The notes under the pieces were generated by a model. It did no database searches and was not told the origin of the DNA. It saw nothing but the letters and a program-made list of their open reading frames with translations. A program made the translations under genes and the position numbers. A stretch of DNA of 64,000 nt from Acidobacteriota bacterium (GTDB taxonomy: Bacteria > Acidobacteriota > JAAYUB01). Shown here piece by piece: positions 37,391 through 63,373 of this stretch; within the stretch, counting starts at the first letter, position 1, and each line of letters begins with the position of its first letter. Where the stretch lies: contig JAKQOW010000131.1 of assembly GCA_029565065.1 (NCBI GenBank), positions 6,901-70,900 on the forward strand, given 5' to 3'.

Positions 37391-37786
37391 ATGAAGAAAG
37401 TCGGACTGCTGTTGCCTGAAATGATGAGCCACCTGGCCCACAAGCCGGTTACCCGCCTCTATCCGTTCGAGAAGGTGACCGCGCCCGAGGGCTTTCGCGG
37501 CACGCCCCGGTTCAAGCCGAACAACTGCATCGGCTGCAAGGCCTGCGTTCGCGATTGCACCGCCGAAGCCATCGAGATCGACGTCCACAAAATTGATCCG
37601 CCCCCCGGCTCGCCCGAGGGGACCAAGCCGACGAAGAAGATGGTCTGCACCATCTACCTCGATCGCTGCGTGCACTGCGCCCGCTGCGTCGAAGTCTGCC
37701 CCAAGGACGCCCTGTACATGGACACGGAGTTCGAGGTGGCCAACTTCACCCGCGACGCGCTGAAAATCGTGCAGGAATCGGATTGA
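37391..37786 (+). CDS. 2x[4Fe-4S] ferredoxin subunit NuoI-like (EchF/MbhN-like)
   Basis: It has two CxxCxxCxxxCP motifs (CIGCKACVRDCTAEA ; CVHCARCVEVCP). Confidence 0.9.
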   Translation: MKKVGLLLPEMMSHLAHKPVTRLYPFEKVTAPEGFRGTPRFKPNNCIGCKACVRDCTAEAIEIDVHKIDPPPGSPEGTKPTKKMVCTIYLDRCVHCARCVEVCPKDALYMDTEFEVANFTRDALKIVQESD

Positions 37787-38313
37787 TGGACCGTCCGGCG
37801 GACCGCCTGCGCGCCCTGCTGGACGCGGCGCGCCGGGCAGACCGGAAAGTGGTTGTGTTGGGAATTGGGAACGAGCTCCTGGGCGACGACGCCGTCGGCG
37901 ATCGCGTCGCCCGGGAGCTCGCGCCGTTTAACGACCACCGTTTTGAGGCTATCCCCGCCGGCAACGCACCCGAGAACGGCGCCTACATGGTCAGTCGGGC
38001 CGCCCCCGATGTGCTGATCATCATCGACGCGGCCGGGCCGGCCGGCGGAGCAGGGGAAGGCTCCGACAGCGCCGCGCCGTGGGATTTCTATCCTGCCGAT
38101 TCACTCGACACGTTCTGCCATTCCACCCATTCGGTGCCCCTGAGCATGCTCGTGAGCGTCTGGCGGCAGGAGCGGCCGCATCTCGATGTGCGGTTCATTG
38201 GCATCGCCATCCGCGAGACTTCGTTCCTGGCGCCGCTGTCCTCGTCGGTGGACGCCATCCGCGCCGAGATCGTGGGAGTGTTCCGGTCGGCGGTGGGGGA
38301 TGGTAAACAGTGA
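37786..38313 (+). CDS. hycI: Hydrogenase maturation endopeptidase (HycI/HybD family)
   Basis: The motif VVLGIGNELLGDDAVG is present with a downstream conserved His (HSTHS). Its ATG overlaps the NuoI-like stop. It is the last gene of the hydrogenase operon. Confidence 0.85.
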   Translation: MDRPADRLRALLDAARRADRKVVVLGIGNELLGDDAVGDRVARELAPFNDHRFEAIPAGNAPENGAYMVSRAAPDVLIIIDAAGPAGGAGEGSDSAAPWDFYPADSLDTFCHSTHSVPLSMLVSVWRQERPHLDVRFIGIAIRETSFLAPLSSSVDAIRAEIVGVFRSAVGDGKQ

Positions 38314-38575
38314 ACGGTGAACGGTGAACAGTGAAGAGATAGGAGATAGGGGATAGGAGATTGGAGTGTCGAGTATAGGTGGGTTCGGGATTCGTAATCG
38401 TAATATGTAATCGTGATCGTAATCGAGGCTCAACCCTCGACCCTCAACCCTCAACCCTCGACCCTCAACCCTCAACCCTCGACCCTCAACCCTCAACCCT
38501 CGACCCTCGACCCTCGACCCTCAACCCTCGACCCTCAACCCTCAACCCTCAACCCTCAACCTCCACCCCCAATCC
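38305..38575. repeat. Heptanucleotide-periodic microsatellite tract of about 38 units, in successive blocks: (AACRGTG)x4, (AGGAGAT)x4, a CGTAAT/CGTGAT hexamer block, then about 19 copies of (R)ACCCTC
   Basis: Direct reading gives aacagtg aacggtg aacggtg aacagtg aagagat aggagat aggggat aggagat ... gtaatcgtgatcgtaatcg aggctc (aaccctc/gaccctc)x~19. It is intergenic between the hycI stop and the convergent NSS operon. Confidence 0.85.
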
Positions 38576-38778
38576 TTTTGTTCTCATCCGTGCGATCGGC
38601 GACTCGAGGCCTGGCCGCAGCGACTATCTTCAGTGGCGCGCGTTCGATGAACGCACGCCAGAAGTACCTCGGGCTAGAGGCCGCTAAGTACAGCGGGCCT
38701 CCGGTGAACGCTGCCAACTGGCGGGCAAATCTGTTGTGACGAAATATATCTGGGGCGAAGCGGGACAGGTGGCCGCGG

Positions 38779-39045
38779 TTATCGCACCACGGCGAAGATG
38801 ATGAAGAACACCAGCGCCAGGTTGATGGAGGCGATCCAGCTGTAGAAGAGGGGGCCCGTCCGGCCGGATTCGGCCCGGGTCACAGTGCGGTACCGATTGA
38901 GGTAGCTCGGGATCATCACCCGCAGCCAGATGAAGCTCACCCGCTCGCCGCGCCGGCGGAGCGCCTCGTAGAGGCACACGGCCGTCCCGACGGCCCACAG
39001 CGAGCACATCACACCCAAGCTCAGAAGAACTATTTGCGGGAACAT
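38779..39045 (-). CDS. Small membrane protein downstream of the NSS transporter (possible accessory/small subunit)
   Basis: The 88-aa product runs from ATG 39045 (MFPQIVLL...) with an AGGAGG RBS. It has two TM helices. It is co-oriented 108 nt downstream of the NSS gene. Confidence 0.5.
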   Translation of the reverse strand: MFPQIVLLSLGVMCSLWAVGTAVCLYEALRRRGERVSFIWLRVMIPSYLNRYRTVTRAESGRTGPLFYSWIASINLALVFFIIFAVVR

Positions 39046-47584: not shown

Positions 47585-49303
47585 CTACATTTTCTCCAAC
47601 AGCCGTTCCACTTCTTTGAACACGGCGGAACCCGCCTGTTCCAATTCCGGCCTCAGGACCGCTCGGGCGTATTGAACGGCGCGCGCCGCGTCGTCGGACA
47701 GCACACCAAGCAGGTAGGCGATTTTTCCTTTCAGCCCGTGGATCGTGTTGAAGACGACCTCGCTGTGGAAGAGCAGGGGACGCGCGCACAGGATGTCCAC
47801 CTCGTTGGACCGCAGGAGCATGTCCGCCCGCAGGCGCTCCACCGCGTCGGCCGGGGGATTTCGCTGGGCGATGACGGGTTGCAGCACCACCCGGACGGCC
47901 TGCAGCACCTCCTGAGTCCGGCGGAGATGCCGCAGGCATTCCGCCCGGTGCAGGCTGAATTCCCGCTCGTCGGCCGGCGGCGGCTCCTTGGCTTCCTGCT
48001 GACCGTCCAGCTTGAAGATGGCGCGCAGGTGCTGGGTGGTCAGCGGACGATCACCGAACATGGCGTGCAGGCTGGACAGCACCATCAGGAGTTCACGCGC
48101 GTTGCCCGGCCAGGCATAGCCCCGCAGCTCGTTCAGGATGTCGTCCGGCAGCGCGCCCGTCGGATTGCGGGTGATGCGCTGCCAGAAATGCTGGGCCAGT
48201 CGGGGGACGTCGTCGAGATGACGCCGCAGAGCGGGCGTGCGGATGAGCATGCCCCGGAGGCGGTAGTACAGGTCTTCCCGGAACTCGCCGCGCTGGACCA
48301 TGCCGAACAGGTCGCGGTTCGTCGCCGCCAGCACGCGGACATCCAACTGGACGGGCTCCCGGGCGCCCAGGGGCAGAATGGCCTTGTCGTCCAGCACCCG
48401 CAGGATCTTGGCCTGTTGCGGCAGGGGGAGTTCGGCGACCTCGTCCAGAAAGATGGTGCCGTGATTGGCCGCCTCCCAGAGGCCGATCCGGTCAGCCTGG
48501 GCGTCGGTGAACGCGCCCTTCTTGTACCCGAAAAACTCGGACTCCAGCAAATTCAGCGGAATGGCGCCGCAGTTGACGGGCACGAAGCGGCTTTTTCCGC
48601 GCCGGCTCAGGCTGTGAATCTCCTGGGCGACGATGTTCTTGCCGGTGCCGGTGTCGCCGACGATGAGCACGGCGCATTCGGCCCGGGCCGCCTGGATGAT
48701 GAGCTGCCGGACCAGCTCGGCCTCCATGGATTGCCCGACGAATTTGGAGTCGAGCACCCTGGCCTCGGCATGGTAGCCGATGAGTTGGATCAGGGATCCG
48801 TCGCCGGCCGTCTCGGACTCTGTCTCCGGAGCGGTCGGAGCCGGAACGGCGGCTCCCGCGGCGCCCGCCGCGGGGGCGGCGGTCTCGCCGCCCGCTGGGT
48901 CGGGCCTGGCCATCGTCCACAAGCTGTCGAACAAATCCGGCGGGATGCCCACGATGGCGCGCAAGTGCGTGCTGCCGGAGCCGGTGTGTTTAAGGAAATC
49001 GCAGACGCTGCGCTGCAACTGACCGGTTGAACGGTAAACGCCTTCGACAAGCGGAATCTTGCCGGCCGGGCCGCCCGTGAGGTAGGTCTTCAATCCCTTA
49101 TGGACGTTCTTGATGCCCCGATCCACCACCAGATCGACCATGGTGCGGAAACCGGCCAGATCCGCGTTGTCGACCAGGTAGATCGCAGCCTGGGGCGGTT
49201 TGGGGACTTTTTCCAAATCCTGTGTCCGGTTACGTGGCAGCGCGCACCGGAATGGGCCTTCAGGCGGTTTGCCCGTCAGGTACTTCAACGCACGAGCAGT
49301 CAT
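47585..49303 (-). CDS. Sigma-54-dependent transcriptional activator (bEBP AAA+ core) with unassigned N-terminal domain and no recognisable C-terminal Fis-type HTH
   Basis: The central domain has Walker A GDTGTGKN, GAFTGA-type KGAFTDA, Walker B IFLDEV, the arginine fingers and sensor II. The 150-aa N-terminus and 170-aa C-terminus are not recognisable by eye. It is divergent from the sigma-54 promoter operon. Confidence 0.85.
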   Translation of the reverse strand: MTARALKYLTGKPPEGPFRCALPRNRTQDLEKVPKPPQAAIYLVDNADLAGFRTMVDLVVDRGIKNVHKGLKTYLTGGPAGKIPLVEGVYRSTGQLQRSVCDFLKHTGSGSTHLRAIVGIPPDLFDSLWTMARPDPAGGETAAPAAGAAGAAVPAPTAPETESETAGDGSLIQLIGYHAEARVLDSKFVGQSMEAELVRQLIIQAARAECAVLIVGDTGTGKNIVAQEIHSLSRRGKSRFVPVNCGAIPLNLLESEFFGYKKGAFTDAQADRIGLWEAANHGTIFLDEVAELPLPQQAKILRVLDDKAILPLGAREPVQLDVRVLAATNRDLFGMVQRGEFREDLYYRLRGMLIRTPALRRHLDDVPRLAQHFWQRITRNPTGALPDDILNELRGYAWPGNARELLMVLSSLHAMFGDRPLTTQHLRAIFKLDGQQEAKEPPPADEREFSLHRAECLRHLRRTQEVLQAVRVVLQPVIAQRNPPADAVERLRADMLLRSNEVDILCARPLLFHSEVVFNTIHGLKGKIAYLLGVLSDDAARAVQYARAVLRPELEQAGSAVFKEVERLLEKM

Positions 49304-60102: not shown

Positions 60103-62787
60103 ATGGGTATCCGCATGCGGTTGGGATGTGCCTTGCTGCTGCTGACGGTGATCGGCGGAGTGTGCGTTCAGGCGGCGAGCGAATACTCCGAGGAAGACGA
60201 TGTCGAGCCCGCTGGTACCCTCATCCTGAGGACCGACGAATCGGGTGATGCTGAGGTGGATGCCTGGCTGCGGCTGGATTCGCCGGGTGGGCCGGCGCGG
60301 GTCTCGCCCGAACGGCTGCTGGGGCTCGTCCAACTAGCGGTGGGACAGCCACTGGCCGACTCCCGGGTCGTGGAGAACGACGGATTTCTTGCGGTGAGGG
60401 GGAAGCTCCGGCGGTGGGCGGTGCGCGACGGCCTCGTCGTGACGGCCACGGTGCGGATCAGCCCGCTGCAGGCCCTGCTGCGGGACGCGCATCAGCCGCG
60501 GCTGGAGCTGCGCCTTGGGCATCCCCGGCTGGGCTGGGCGGAGTACACGGGCTTCGAGCCGTCCCGCCGGTCCGCCGGCGCTCAGACGGAGCTGCGCCTT
60601 ATCGTCCGGGCGGGCACCCCGGCGGTGGCTACGGCGACCGTCCGCTGGGGCTATGACCGCTGGGGGCTGTGGTGGCGTCTGGCGCTGGCGGTGCTGGCCG
60701 TGCTGGCGCCCCTCAGCCTCATTCTGATCGCACGGCGCCGGTCGCTGCGGCTGGCGGCCGCCGATCCCATCGCCGCCTGGTTCGGATTCTGGCGGACGTA
60801 CCAGTGGGTGCTCGCGGGGGGTTGGCTGGCCTGGCTCTGGCTGGTTTTCGCCGGCCGGTGGGGGACTCTGGTTCAATTTCTCGCTGGTCCGGACCGTCCG
60901 GTCTGGCTGCTGGCGCTGGCCCTGCCGCCGGCGCTGGCGGGCGTCGCGTGCTTCCTGCCGGCGCGCGCGGTTTTCCGGCGGGTGCGCGGCATCCACCTCA
61001 CCCCGGCCGAGATGGTGCGTCAGGAGTTCTGGCGGCAGTTGGCGTTTCTCGCGCCCGCGACGTTGGGGCTGGTGGGCCTGGTCTGTCTGTTTGACGAGAC
61101 GCCCGTTGCCTGGCTGTGCTTCGGCCTGGCGCTGCTGAGCGCCTTGGTGGGGCTCACCGGCTACGCGTGGGCCACGGGCATGACCCCGCACCAGCTCATG
61201 TCCGGCGAGCTACGGGACCGCATGGAGGTGTTGGCCCGGCAGGCGGGCGTGACGCTCCGGCGGATCTTCGTCATGCCCGCCGGCCGTCTGCAGATCGGCA
61301 ACGCCTACGCCCTGCGCGGCAGCGACGTGATCCTGACCGACTACCTGCTGGAGCGCCTCAACCGGGCCGAGACCGACGCCGTGATCGCCCACGAGCTGGG
61401 TCATCTCAAGCGGGGCCACCATCGGTTGGTGGGGTGGGTGTTCGCGATCATCTTCGTGCTCCTGTTTTTCGTGGGTGGCACCGTGTTCGCGGTCATCGCC
61501 ATCCTGTGGCGCATGGCGGCGGAGGCGGCCGGGTGGGGCGGGGTGGACCGGCTGCCCGACCTGCTGGACGCAATGATCCTCATCCTGGCGCCCCTCGGTT
61601 TCGGGGCGGCGTTGTGGGGGCAACTGTTCGTCCGGCGGCGCTGCGAGCGCTCCGCCGACCGCGCGGCGGTGGCTCTCACCGGCGATCCGGAGAGCGCCAT
61701 CACGGCGCTGGTGAAGCTGTCGCGCATGAATCTCGTTCCCATCCGCTGGGGGTTCTGGGACGAGCAACTGGGCACCCACCCGGCGACGCTGCGGCGTGCG
61801 CAGACCATCGCCGCCGACCACGCCATCCCGGCCGAGCGGTTGGACGCGCTGCTGTTGACGCCGTCCGCGCCGGTAGCCGACGGCTACCCGGTCCCGGAGG
61901 AGATGCGCAACCCGCAGCGCCTCTTCACCGCGGAGTTCAAATCGCGTCAGGTGATGCTGAATCTGCTGGTCATGCTCGGCCTGTTCGCACTAGCGCCGGC
62001 GCTCTGGTTCCTGCGGCTGGAAACAGTCGGCTGGACCGGCACCGCCCGGTGGCTGGCCCTGGGGGCGGGGCCGCTGGTTGTGCTCGCGGTGTACCTGCTG
62101 ACAGCCAATTTTACCCAACTGTCGGGTTACGGCGCGGTGCGGCGGCAGTTGGCCGGCCGGCTGCGGCGACAGGGGGTGCTCACTGCCGAAGCGGACGGCG
62201 AGTTCGTCGGCCTGGCCCCCGAACCGCATCACCGTCTCTACGAGGGGCATTCGGTCTGGGACGTGGGATTTCTTGCCTGGAGCGATGCCGGGTTGGCCTA
62301 TGCCGGCGACCAGTGCCGGTTTCTCATTCCCCGCGATGAAGTGGCCGCGGTGGCGGCAGGCGCCGGTCCGCCCGGACTGCTGCGGACTGAGGAGATCCGC
62401 CTACACTGGCGCGGTCCGGACGGGCGGGAGCGGACGTGGCGGCTGACGGCGCTGGGCGGTGCCTCGCGGCTCGGGAACTCGGCACGGAGTCGAAGGCTGC
62501 GACAGCGGCTGGCGGCGTGGTTGGCCGGCCAACAATCCTCAGGTGGCGGCCTGCTCACGGCGAGCGAGCCGCCCCCGTCGGAACTGGACGAAGTGCGCGG
62601 CGACCACCCCCGCCGGCACGTGCAGGCGGGCGGCGTCATCTTCAGCCTGGTGGTCATCGGCTGCCTCGCGGCGGGCGCGGCCACAGCGCTTGGCATCGAC
62701 GGATGGGCTGTGCTCTACACACCGCTGGTCGCGGCGTTCGCGTTTGTCCTGGCCATCCTGCCCATGGCGCTGTATCGCGATCGCTGA
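60103..62787 (+). CDS. Large polytopic membrane M48-family zinc metalloprotease (HtpX-like core embedded)
   Basis: The HExxH motif IAHELGHLKRGHH is flanked by TM helices, with a downstream conserved E region (RRCERSADRAAV). The 894-aa protein has a signal peptide and more than 12 TM segments. Confidence 0.8.
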   Translation: MGIRMRLGCALLLLTVIGGVCVQAASEYSEEDDVEPAGTLILRTDESGDAEVDAWLRLDSPGGPARVSPERLLGLVQLAVGQPLADSRVVENDGFLAVRGKLRRWAVRDGLVVTATVRISPLQALLRDAHQPRLELRLGHPRLGWAEYTGFEPSRRSAGAQTELRLIVRAGTPAVATATVRWGYDRWGLWWRLALAVLAVLAPLSLILIARRRSLRLAAADPIAAWFGFWRTYQWVLAGGWLAWLWLVFAGRWGTLVQFLAGPDRPVWLLALALPPALAGVACFLPARAVFRRVRGIHLTPAEMVRQEFWRQLAFLAPATLGLVGLVCLFDETPVAWLCFGLALLSALVGLTGYAWATGMTPHQLMSGELRDRMEVLARQAGVTLRRIFVMPAGRLQIGNAYALRGSDVILTDYLLERLNRAETDAVIAHELGHLKRGHHRLVGWVFAIIFVLLFFVGGTVFAVIAILWRMAAEAAGWGGVDRLPDLLDAMILILAPLGFGAALWGQLFVRRRCERSADRAAVALTGDPESAITALVKLSRMNLVPIRWGFWDEQLGTHPATLRRAQTIAADHAIPAERLDALLLTPSAPVADGYPVPEEMRNPQRLFTAEFKSRQVMLNLLVMLGLFALAPALWFLRLETVGWTGTARWLALGAGPLVVLAVYLLTANFTQLSGYGAVRRQLAGRLRRQGVLTAEADGEFVGLAPEPHHRLYEGHSVWDVGFLAWSDAGLAYAGDQCRFLIPRDEVAAVAAGAGPPGLLRTEEIRLHWRGPDGRERTWRLTALGGASRLGNSARSRRLRQRLAAWLAGQQSSGGGLLTASEPPPSELDEVRGDHPRRHVQAGGVIFSLVVIGCLAAGAATALGIDGWAVLYTPLVAAFAFVLAILPMALYRDR

Positions 62788-62844
62788 GTTGTGTCCGGGG
62801 CGCACCTGCCGCAAACTCCATCGATGCCGGAGGCTCGTTCCTGC

Positions 62845-63005
62845 TCGTAAGTCGTAATCGTGATCGTAATCGTAATCGAGGCTCGGGACTCGGAGCTTGT
62901 TCCCGAACATCGGACAGCGGACCACGGACTTTCCAACCTCCCAACCTTCCAACCTTTCAACCTTCCAACCTTTCAACCTTTCAACCTTCCAACCTTCCAA
63001 CCATT
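62845..63005. repeat. Composite microsatellite: (CGTAAT/CGTGAT) hexamer block sharing a about 30-nt core with the 38.4-kb locus, then about 9 copies of an octamer (TTCCAACC / TTTCAACC)
   Basis: Direct reading gives gtcgtaatcgtgatcgtaatcgtaatcgaggctcgggactcgga... ttccaacc tcccaacc ttccaacc tttcaacc ttccaacc tttcaacc tttcaacc ttccaacc ttccaacc. It is intergenic between the M48 gene and the protease-like gene. Confidence 0.85.
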
Positions 63006-63373
63006 GAACAATCCTCAGAACAATAGCTGAAAAGTCCACTCGGTCGCGCAGGCAGTCTGTCCGAAGATGAGGGTTCCTGCAGACGGCTCGCGCTCGACGA
63101 GTCATGTTATTCCACGACAGGTCATCCCCCGTCAACGAACACTCGTCCCGTCCTGATCTCCTCTGGGAACCTCCCCTTGAGATGTTTCCGCCGGTTCTCG
63201 TACTAAATGCCAGCAGTCGATCCCACCCACGCCCCGGACGGCCTGGAAATGGAAAGCCGCCGCGGGGCCCAAAGGCCGGATCCGCACCCGGCCGGGAGGA
63301 AGCCGTGGAGATAACGGTGATAGGGGAGCGAACGATCGGTGCCCGGGTATGGCGACGGTGCTTCATCGGGGGG

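Follow-up and report, generated by a model that had tools for sequence, protein, structure and literature searches.

Here we describe a family of mosaic short-repeat intergenic elements, two members of which lie in a 64,000-nt stretch of DNA from an Acidobacteriota bacterium (contig JAKQOW010000131.1; hereafter, the window). Positions 38302-38576 (locus 1) and 62830-63005 (locus 2) of the window are two copies of a lineage-specific interspersed repeat family, hosted by a genus-level group of uncultured Acidobacteriota from anaerobic digesters and previously undescribed. The family is probably an old one, whose members change by slippage and by exchange between copies, and which is tolerated as filler with no need for a dedicated function.

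A Shared Core Recurring in Related Genomes

The two loci had been noticed from the letters of the window alone, as non-coding microsatellites sharing a core of about 30 nt (the original prediction). The same sequence does occur at both: the 19-mer GTAATCGTGATCGTAATCG is found exactly at 38407-38425 and 62854-62872, where 0.01 matches are expected by chance, and the shared string extends to GTAATCGTGATCGTAATCG[TAATCG]AGGCTC (38407-38431 and 62854-62884), with one extra hexamer unit at locus 2. It had also been suggested that the core might nucleate slippage in the arrays beside it. This idea has to be abandoned, as the core is not unique sequence but itself a microsatellite, the joint of (TCGTAA)n hexamers and (CGAGGCT)n heptamers. 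What was taken for a core is the most conserved joint of the family, at which the hexamer array meets the first GAGGCTC unit.

A dispersed family had been proposed in preference to two independent microsatellites, and the recurrence of the core bears this out. When GTRATCGTRATCGAGGCTC was scanned against one genome per species (185,579 species), at least 88 stretches matched. Among the 88 listed, 71 stretches (91 matches) came from two related Acidobacteriota metagenome-assembled genomes (MAGs), JAXGLX01 (which includes a 5.0-Mb contig) and JAGOHA01, or from contigs of the same lineage that seem to have been mis-binned; unrelated taxa accounted for the other 17, all GTGATCGTGATCGAGGCTC-type matches and in many cases plainly inside coding sequence, and about 17 chance matches were estimated. 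The core thus occurs more than 90 times in ~0.5 Mb from the two MAGs, whose nucleotide identity to the window is about 87-95% where they overlap, and it is also found at orthologous loci in these relatives, so that its recurrence beyond two copies and its presence in related genomes, on which the original prediction had staked itself, both hold. In 502 kb from the two MAGs, the 19-mer was counted 62 times, the 25-nt form of the core seen at locus 1 31 times and the 31-nt form of locus 2 five times, along with 145 hexamer arrays (median 7 units). A profile of the core region (modules A-B-linker-C, as defined below), built with nhmmer from 88 copies, all from other genomes and none from the window, picks out just two places in the window, 62842-62922 (E 3.5e-20) and 38384-38442 (E 6.3e-13), with nothing else below E 1. 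The core was not found in a viral contig collection.

Modules and Their Order

Tandem arrays were called with Tandem Repeats Finder (TRF). In the 502 kb, 355 of them have a period of 7 nt, 131 one of 8 nt and 104 one of 6 nt, and about a dozen units dominate: AGCCTCG is the commonest (72 arrays), followed by AATCGT (60), ACATCGG (36), AATCGGTG (31), AGATAGG (28), ACGGGAG (26), AATGGGTG (22), ACCTGGG and AACAGTG (18 each), AACCATC (16), AACCCTC (9) and AACCTTCC (4). Since arrays of the last two recur there, the two arrays downstream of the core in the window are recurrent family modules. They had been described as divergent, but AACCCTC and TTCCAACC both belong to the repertoire of the same family. 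The terminal arrays of the window are the longest of their kind seen, with 21 AACCCTC units against a maximum of 5.7 elsewhere and nine octamers against 6.6.

We labelled the modules H (GGTGAAC), I (GGAGATA), A (TCGTAA hexamers), B (CGAGGCT), C (CATCGGA), D (CCTGGGA), K (ACGGGAG) and M (CATTCACC-type octamers), with lower-case letters for the reverse orientation. Their succession is far from free, the transitions counted being A to B (83), B to C (39), C to A (31) and I to A (19) and, for the later modules, C to D (17), reverse K (k) to M (15), D to M (12) and H to I (8). A full-length copy reads (GGTGAAC)n - (GGAGATA)n - CGTGCTCGTAAT(TCGTAA)n - (CGAGGCT)n - GTTCCC..CGGA linker - (CATCGGA)n, continued by (CCTGGGA)n or other arrays and then by a terminal array, which may be (CATTCACC)n, (AACCCTC)n, (CAACCAT)n or (TTCCAACC)n; in module letters, this is H, I, A, B, linker, C, D, GGATCACAGAACCCAGATCC, M. 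The ends of such a copy are inverted GGTGAAY arrays, as it starts with (GGTGAAC)n and finishes with (xATTCACC)n, the reverse complement of (GGTGAATx)n. In several loci, the A-B-linker-C block is itself tandemly repeated at periods of ~60-150 bp.

Both window copies match the family in order and orientation (table 1). Locus 1 is laid out as H-I-A-B-AACCCTC, with a single B unit, and its heptamers follow the core as had been predicted (21.3 units of CTCAACC at 38429-38576). Locus 2 consists of a B-linker fragment followed by A-B-linker-C-octamers. Here the predicted octamers are present in about nine copies but do not come directly after the core, from which they are separated by a 44-nt stretch (62885-62928) with three other family modules. 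The 12-mer GAGGCTCGTTCC, left over from a preceding partial unit at locus 2, occurs 71 times in family loci and gives a weak profile match at 62821-62845 (E 1.9). A linker hairpin with covariation was suspected and dropped: in the 114 linkers listed (GTTCCC-G-NNNNN-C-GGA), the putative stem bases are essentially invariant, hence uninformative, and the variable bases show no consistent pairing.

Table 1. Parts of the two window copies of the family and the genes that precede them.
Feature	Positions	Strand	Basis or remark
Locus 1, (GGTGAAC/AGTGAAC) heptamer array, (GGTGAAC)5	38302..38335	+	TRF
Locus 1, (GGAGATA)4 heptamer array	38336..38366	+	TRF
Locus 1, module A hexamer array	38391..38424	+	TRF (TCGTAA)5.5 at 38392-38425; profile match 38384-38442
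Locus 1, shared core copy GTAATCGTGATCGTAATCGAGGCTC	38407..38431	+	Exact shared string
Locus 1, single GAGGCTC unit (module B)	38425..38431	+	Sequence
Locus 1, terminal module: AACCCTC/GACCCTC heptamers, ~21 copies	38432..38576	+	TRF CTCAACC x21.3, 38429-38576, score 219
Locus 2, fragment GAGGCTCGTTCC	62830..62841	+	Leftover (CGAGGCT)/linker junction of preceding partial unit; exact match
Locus 2, module A: TGCTCGTAAG then TCGTAA/TCGTGA hexamers	62842..62877	+	TRF period 6, 5.5 copies, 62845-62878
Locus 2, shared core = A/B junction GTAATCGTGATCGTAATCGTAATCGAGGCTC	62854..62884	+	Exact shared string
Locus 2, module B: heptamers GAGGCTC GGGACTC GGAGCT (three)	62878..62897	+	Sequence
Locus 2, linker: TGTTCCCGAACATCGGA	62898..62914	+	Fits family form GTTCCC-G-NNNNN-C-GGA
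Locus 2, module C: CAGCGGA CCACGGA, two degenerate CATCGGA-type heptamers	62915..62928	+	Sequence
Locus 2, terminal module: TTCCAACC/TTTCAACC octamers, 9 copies	62929..63005	+	TRF 62931-63002, 9.0 copies, score 116
Gene 5' of locus 1: 176-aa open reading frame kept in relatives	37783..38313	+	No Pfam match
Gene 5' of locus 2: M48-family peptidase, 894 aa	60103..62787	+	Pfam PF01435, E 1.6e-25

Inheritance and Turnover at Orthologous Sites

In two orthologs of locus 1 (L071 and L039; L-numbers label the compared sequences, that is, relatives' loci and Logan contigs), H, I, A and GAGGCTC are all kept. The AACCCTC copies number 21 in the window and four in L071, while L039 has a different right-hand half and extra inserted repeats, and the array-encoded last codons of the gene before locus 1 differ between genomes. 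The orthologs of locus 2 were located with the M48 protein. At 92% protein identity (L095), the contig ends within the hexamers; at 86% (L096), degenerate hexamers, GAGGCTC, the linker and four CATCGGA-type units are recognizable (profile E 2e-9), with about one TTCCAACC copy against nine in the window; at 84% (L097), modules A and B are lacking, and (CATCGGA)4 and three CTTYGAAC octamers are present. The scaffold being kept in orthologs, we conclude that it is old and inherited in place, and that the octamer array of the window is a local expansion.

Other comparisons show the same mixture of stability and change. One further orthologous pair has 11 versus 6 hexamers and 2 versus ~26 GGTGAAT units, and in some orthologous regions the inner modules are not the same. 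The positional ortholog was the most similar copy for only 5 of the 16 element pairs, which, in a ranking that is noisy for sequence of such low complexity, suggests exchange between copies or a very fast internal turnover. Each module would lengthen and shorten through replication slippage, the scaffold would be passed on vertically at orthologous sites, and module content would be reshuffled among the copies, with recombination or gene conversion as the likeliest means, a scheme that these comparisons bear out in part.

Position and Polarity Relative to Genes

With genes called by the GC content at third codon positions (GC3), all family copies are intergenic, the two window loci included, so that their predicted non-coding setting stands. 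The copies lie between convergent genes in 23 cases, divergent genes in nine and tandem genes in 32, and 34% of convergent gaps contain one compared with ~15% in the other classes. The orientation of the core showed no bias with respect either to replication on the 5-Mb contig (24 plus, 26 minus) or to transcription in tandem gene pairs (18 co-oriented, 14 opposite).

The arrays that adjoin genes, on the other hand, show strong polarity. In the 110 nt that follow a stop codon, GGTGAAY arrays were sense in 35 cases and antisense in two (p 1e-8), GGAGATA arrays sense in 17 and antisense in none (p 1.5e-5), and TCGTAA arrays sense in 53 and antisense in none (p 2e-16). The first array starts at most 15 nt from the stop codon in 30 of 45 cases, and in 16 of the 45, locus 1 of the window among them, the stop codon is part of the array. 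Because the array periods are 7 and 8, TGA or TAG appears in all three frames within three units. An artefact of open reading frame (ORF) calling was considered as the source of this polarity and ruled out, given that almost no arrays lie inside ORF tails. Short arrays of (GGTGAATC)3-4 also occur in L031 (minus strand) with no other part of the mosaic, placed after a stop codon and before the ribosome-binding site and ATG of the following gene, so that arrays next to stop codons may have an existence of their own, apart from the core.

Both window loci follow plus-strand genes, to whose stop codons they turn their left end in sense orientation. At locus 1, the flanking genes are convergent (plus-strand ORF end at 38310, minus-strand ORF start at 38782, by the GC3 caller), and the stop codon of the preceding 176-aa gene (TGA, 38311-38313) is inside the GGTGAAC array. 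The M48 peptidase gene has its stop codon at 62785-62787, 57 nt ahead of the locus 2 hexamer array (TRF start 62845), and the next plus-strand gene begins at ~63272-63296, with the octamers finishing ~270-290 nt ahead of its start. A promoter and terminator scan around locus 2 returned no promoter-like site and, within the repeat, no terminator-like site.

The 176-aa gene was at first guessed to be a hydrogenase maturation protease, a guess dropped for want of any Pfam match at E up to 0.01. Its final 3-5 codons and TGA are encoded by the GGTGAAC array (38302-38313 in the window; likewise in L039 and L071), and the C-terminal tail varies accordingly, being ..VGDGKQ* in the window and ..MVNGEQ* in L039. 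As the 7-nt period puts a stop in every frame, slippage cannot produce a long extension of this gene.

These data leave it highly improbable that the loci are independent chance microsatellites, a phase-variation switch for their neighbours, coding repeats or small structured RNAs. Microsatellites can arise independently, but chance resemblance is excluded by the shared 19-mer, its recurrence in relatives and the profile matches. The locus 2 array is upstream of the next gene, where it might act as a switch; yet array lengths are equal in four assemblies, ~270-290 nt separate the octamers from that start, and the family sits at 3' ends. Mechanical ORFs traverse the arrays, but periods of 7 and 8 do not suit coding repeats, the difference between 21 and 4 copies is 119 nt, which is not a multiple of 3, and several modules carry stops in all frames. 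As for RNA, a scan of the whole window with Rfam 15 gave nothing at either locus at gathering score, and each of the two regions has a less stable fold than any of its dinucleotide shuffles (z = +2.6 and +2.7), which makes a structured RNA unlikely. The sole Rfam match of the window is a full-length cobalamin riboswitch elsewhere (RF00174, 20653-20837, plus strand, 120 bits).

Origin and Maintenance of the Family

We propose that the family spread in an ancestor by a mechanism acting in trans, comparable to the movement of repetitive extragenic palindromic (REP) sequences, bacterial interspersed mosaic elements (BIMEs) or MITEs (miniature transposable elements with inverted repeats), and that it is no longer visibly mobile. 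Most likely, the elements would need no dedicated function and would be tolerated as filler whose ends are shaped by selection, since only the orientation giving stop codons in all three frames could sit against coding sequence.

Several points weigh against this reading. No mechanism of spread has come to light: target-site duplications were found neither at the window loci nor in the ortholog comparisons, no empty site turned up, either in the 16 orthologous pairs or in orthologs of locus 1 and locus 2, and no associated enzyme or transposase was seen in the compared sequence, in which the complete genomes carry no annotation. Deletion bias is usual in bacterial genomes, and elements of 150-400 bp nevertheless persist at orthologous sites down to 86% protein identity, a persistence that fits pure junk poorly and hints at selection or continual regeneration. 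Part of the evidence for exchange comes from the noisy ranking of the 16 pairs mentioned above, the relatives' loci were chosen for containing the core, so that densities are biased, and the window's own genome is covered over ~73 kb. The gene positions come from a rough caller, which did recover the expected genes around both loci.

The original prediction called the elements MITE-like, a label that is not established: no target-site duplication, empty counterpart or terminal inverted repeat was found for the two window copies. We regard it as unlikely that the family is a MITE or a similar non-autonomous transposon, with inverted GGTGAAY arrays as terminal inverted repeats and a transposase supplied from elsewhere. 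Dozens of dispersed copies share a common internal order, full-length copies do carry inverted GGTGAAY arrays at both ends, and synteny between the two MAGs is broken at some elements, all of which a transposon would explain. Yet the right-hand GGTGAAT-type array is missing from both window copies, copy ends are ragged and modular rather than discrete, the 16 orthologous pairs show no presence/absence difference, the searches for duplications and viral matches were negative, and no transposase association was seen. The GAGGCTCG that flanks the locus 2 hexamers on both sides was examined as a possible target-site duplication and turned out to be an internal module.

Two other repeats, both absent from the window, accompany the mosaics in relatives. 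One ends in ..TTGCCAAA(A/T)TTTGGCAG-AAAATCGGGAGTAACTGA and always adjoins a (GTAATC)n hexamer array in the same orientation (L076:2447-3302 versus L081:6822-7042; also L008, L017, L018, L025, L034, L036, L042, L048, L067 and L078). In L076, compared with its ortholog L081, it forms a ~640-nt insertion inside the hexamer array and carries GC-rich palindromes, and from its sequence context it looks like an element that targets this array. The other consists of 28-nt inverted repeats, GGTACCGCGAGCGGCAGCGAGCGGCGCG, ~200-230 nt apart, and includes a small ORF beginning MSKIKQPAGGRYRERQRAARG; it is located between one mosaic's end and the beginning of the following one, with 15 exact matches in nine loci (L039:627-872, L025, L049, L094, L035, L016, L043, L063 and L021).

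Possible Roles at Gene Ends

We rank a tolerated repeat with ends shaped at coding boundaries first and a functional 3'-end insulator second, the latter being possible though doubtful. Such an insulator would use its stop arrays to release ribosomes and its C-rich, G-poor arrays to load Rho, with termination in both directions. Reading inward from either gene, the RNA would first carry G-rich GGUGAAY, GGAGAUA or GAGGGUU with stops in three frames, and, periods of 7 or 8 not being multiples of 3, any translating ribosome would be released; (UUCCAACC)9 and (AACCCUC)21 would then be Rho utilization (rut) sites. In Escherichia coli, a rut site is an unstructured part of the transcript, rich in C and poor in G, that comes after a gene and is at least 60 nt long, and as far as sequence can tell both loci offer one.

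The composition of the window speaks for this alternative. The two loci are its top two 70-nt windows for excess of C over G on the plus strand, the locus 1 terminal array being the strongest (+0.54) and the locus 2 octamers the second (+0.49), where the mean is -0.02 (sd 0.09). The longest runs free of G in the window are found there too (78 nt at locus 2, 62928-63005, and 49 nt), the octamer array containing no G and ~50% C, and both C-rich arrays lie downstream of a plus-strand gene, on the sense strand. Locus 1 offers the mirror image for the converging minus-strand genes, as its H and I arrays form the strongest window of G over C on the plus strand. More generally, the sense-strand skew after stops starts out G-rich (-0.09 to -0.11) and then becomes C-rich (+0.02 to +0.07), also in 66 tandem pairs, and the poor folding of both regions, the strong polarity of the stop-bearing arrays and the enrichment between convergent genes would all be expected of an insulator. 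Taken together, C-rich G-free arrays and three-frame stop arrays resemble what a Rho-dependent termination zone requires.

Part of this agreement has a simpler source: inverted end arrays produce the skew pattern automatically, and strand-asymmetric tandem repeats pair poorly with themselves, so that positive z-scores are expected with or without function. The inner modules TCGTAA, CGAGGCT, CATCGGA and CCTGGGA are, moreover, neither C-rich nor G-poor, and the fixed module order is left unexplained. Some copies come directly after a classical hairpin-plus-T-run terminator (L094, L017), and repeat arrays and intrinsic terminators at 3' ends are not significantly exclusive (odds ratio 0.52, p = 0.43). 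It is rather unlikely that the whole element is a two-sided gene-end cassette, with three-frame stops, an array for Rho or an analogous factor, and middle modules serving as protein-binding sites; if it were, the cassette would be a modular terminator/insulator built wholly of tunable microsatellites and spread like a mobile element.

Quite unlikely, in our view, is that the tracts act through non-B DNA or bound proteins (G-quadruplex, i-motif, sites for nucleoid or RNA-binding proteins), as might be imagined for the heptamers GGGAATC in Xanthomonas and GGGGAYT in Nostoc. On its minus strand, locus 1 is (GAGGGTT)21, with GGG every 7 nt, and by sequence it fits the G3-N(1-7) motif of four or more runs of at least three Gs spaced by 1-7 nt; the family modules CCTGGGA and ACGGGAG have GGG at the same spacing. 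The minus strand of the locus 2 octamers (GGTTGGAA) has only GG tracts, and G tracts are lacking in the core modules TCGTAA, CGAGGCT and CATCGGA. The GC content of every module is below that of the genome (66% GC). The position of the elements resembles that of the Xanthomonas and Nostoc repeats, though even for the Xanthomonas ones no function was found (PMC4692102).

Consequences for Assemblies and Binning

Four independent assemblies of one strain agree in every base over 560 nt at locus 2, so the sequence of this locus is not an assembly artefact. Two short-read Logan contigs (L005, L006) terminate exactly at ..CGTAATCGAGG, at the core of locus 2, which is what a repeat should cause by making the assembly graph branch. 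The L095 contig likewise breaks inside the hexamers, and the family therefore fragments assemblies, short-read ones in particular. Synteny between MAGs breaks at repeat elements in L043 (versus L016 and L014) and L020 (versus L082); regions that JAXGLX has at 4.93 Mb and 1.97 Mb are joined in one JAGOHA contig, and there is an inversion in another. These breaks may be either real rearrangement or misassembly.

Some contigs that carry the family are binned in other phyla (L021, L052 and L059 in JAKQDD01, 'Verrucomicrobiota'; L075 in JAKPRU01, 'Omnitrophota'; L069 in JAKPQH01). Their identity to the Acidobacteriota MAGs, wherever a comparison could be made, is 95-100% (L021 versus L036, 98.4%; L059 versus L034, 95.4%), and the flanks of the L075 copy exactly match L053; judging from such matches, these contigs are probably mis-binned, and the elements may confuse binning. 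REP/BIME sequences, MITEs and short tandemly repeated repetitive (STRR) heptamers serve as strain markers and have been linked to mRNA stability, transcription termination and chromosome structure. As hypervariable markers, the elements described here could be used for tracking digester Acidobacteriota strains.

A window segment resembling other loci (48257-48695) was considered as repeat-related and rejected, as its BLAST match is due to paralogs of a 572-aa ORF (47585-49303, minus strand), unrelated to the repeats. Segments 68% identical to this ORF are present in L042 and L067, and by its sequence it looks like a sigma-54-dependent AAA+ activator.

Comparison with Known Repeats

At both loci, head-to-tail units of 6, 7 and 8 nt were called by TRF and their copy number varies between relatives, as in simple sequence repeats, whose units measure 1-9 nt. 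Among these, the STRR heptamers of heterocystous cyanobacteria were reportedly described by Mazel and colleagues in 1990. The GGGAATC heptamers of Xanthomonas and GGGGAYT heptamers of Nostoc are scarce between divergent ORFs and close to stop codons, and have no function found (Rehm et al. 2015, PMC4692102). They occur between the same genes in relatives, with variable length, and heptamer repeats are over-represented in large GC-rich genomes for reasons so far unexplained (PMC4692102). The Acidobacteriota family shares with these three the head-to-tail units of ~7 nt, the many dispersed intergenic copies, the scarcity between divergent genes and the nearness to stops. Whereas each of them has one motif, however, it chains about a dozen in a fixed order with conserved non-repeat joints, its whole chains can be tandem at 60-150 bp, most of its modules lack G tracts, and its hosts belong to a different phylum.

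The direct repeats of the heptamer TAACTGA in marine Beggiatoaceae, in cyanobacteria and in Bacteroidetes (MacGregor 2015, PMC4679880) are likewise abundant intergenic heptamers with stop codons, restricted to lineages and with no evident spreading mechanism. They differ in having a single motif, mostly a few nucleotides upstream of start codons, where the Acidobacteriota arrays are mosaics adjoining stop codons. Mycobacterial interspersed repetitive units (MIRUs) are said, after Supply and colleagues in 1997, to be units of 40-100 bp inside operons, with ends that overlap the flanking stop and start codons. Our elements are similar as variable-number intergenic repeats whose ends overlap stop codons, but their units are of 6-8 bp and no overlap with start codons was seen.

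The BIMEs of enterobacteria, known from the work of Gilson, Bachellier and colleagues, are built from REP sequences, imperfect palindromes of ~35 nt that form hairpins and are moved by REP-associated tyrosine transposases. The present family is, like them, interspersed, extragenic and modular, combining a limited set of motifs by rules, after genes and between convergent genes; and the second repeat family that seems to insert specifically into one of its modules recalls the insertion sequences that target REPs. In contrast to BIMEs, its modules are strand-asymmetric tandem repeats that fold worse than shuffles, only CGAGGCT being quasi-palindromic (CTCGAG every 7 nt), and no REP-type transposase was seen. 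The terminal arrays (72 and ~145 nt) appear similar to rut sites in their richness in C, near absence of G, lack of structure and location past a gene on the sense strand. They are, however, tandem and dispersed, whereas natural rut sites, to our knowledge, are neither tandem repeats nor dispersed elements.

A full-text literature search with four repeat strings of the family returned only two chance matches, in unrelated animal papers (zebrafish, snake), and a search for heptamer tandem repeats in Acidobacteria found nothing; the literature searched thus holds nothing similar for Acidobacteriota. If the module order reflects function, the family provides a sequence-defined system for asking why bacteria keep heptamers at gene ends. 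It is a new case in which about a dozen short repeats follow one another with strict polarity against stops, and it differs from all the nearest described repeats in chaining many short repeats, in a fixed order and with polar ends.

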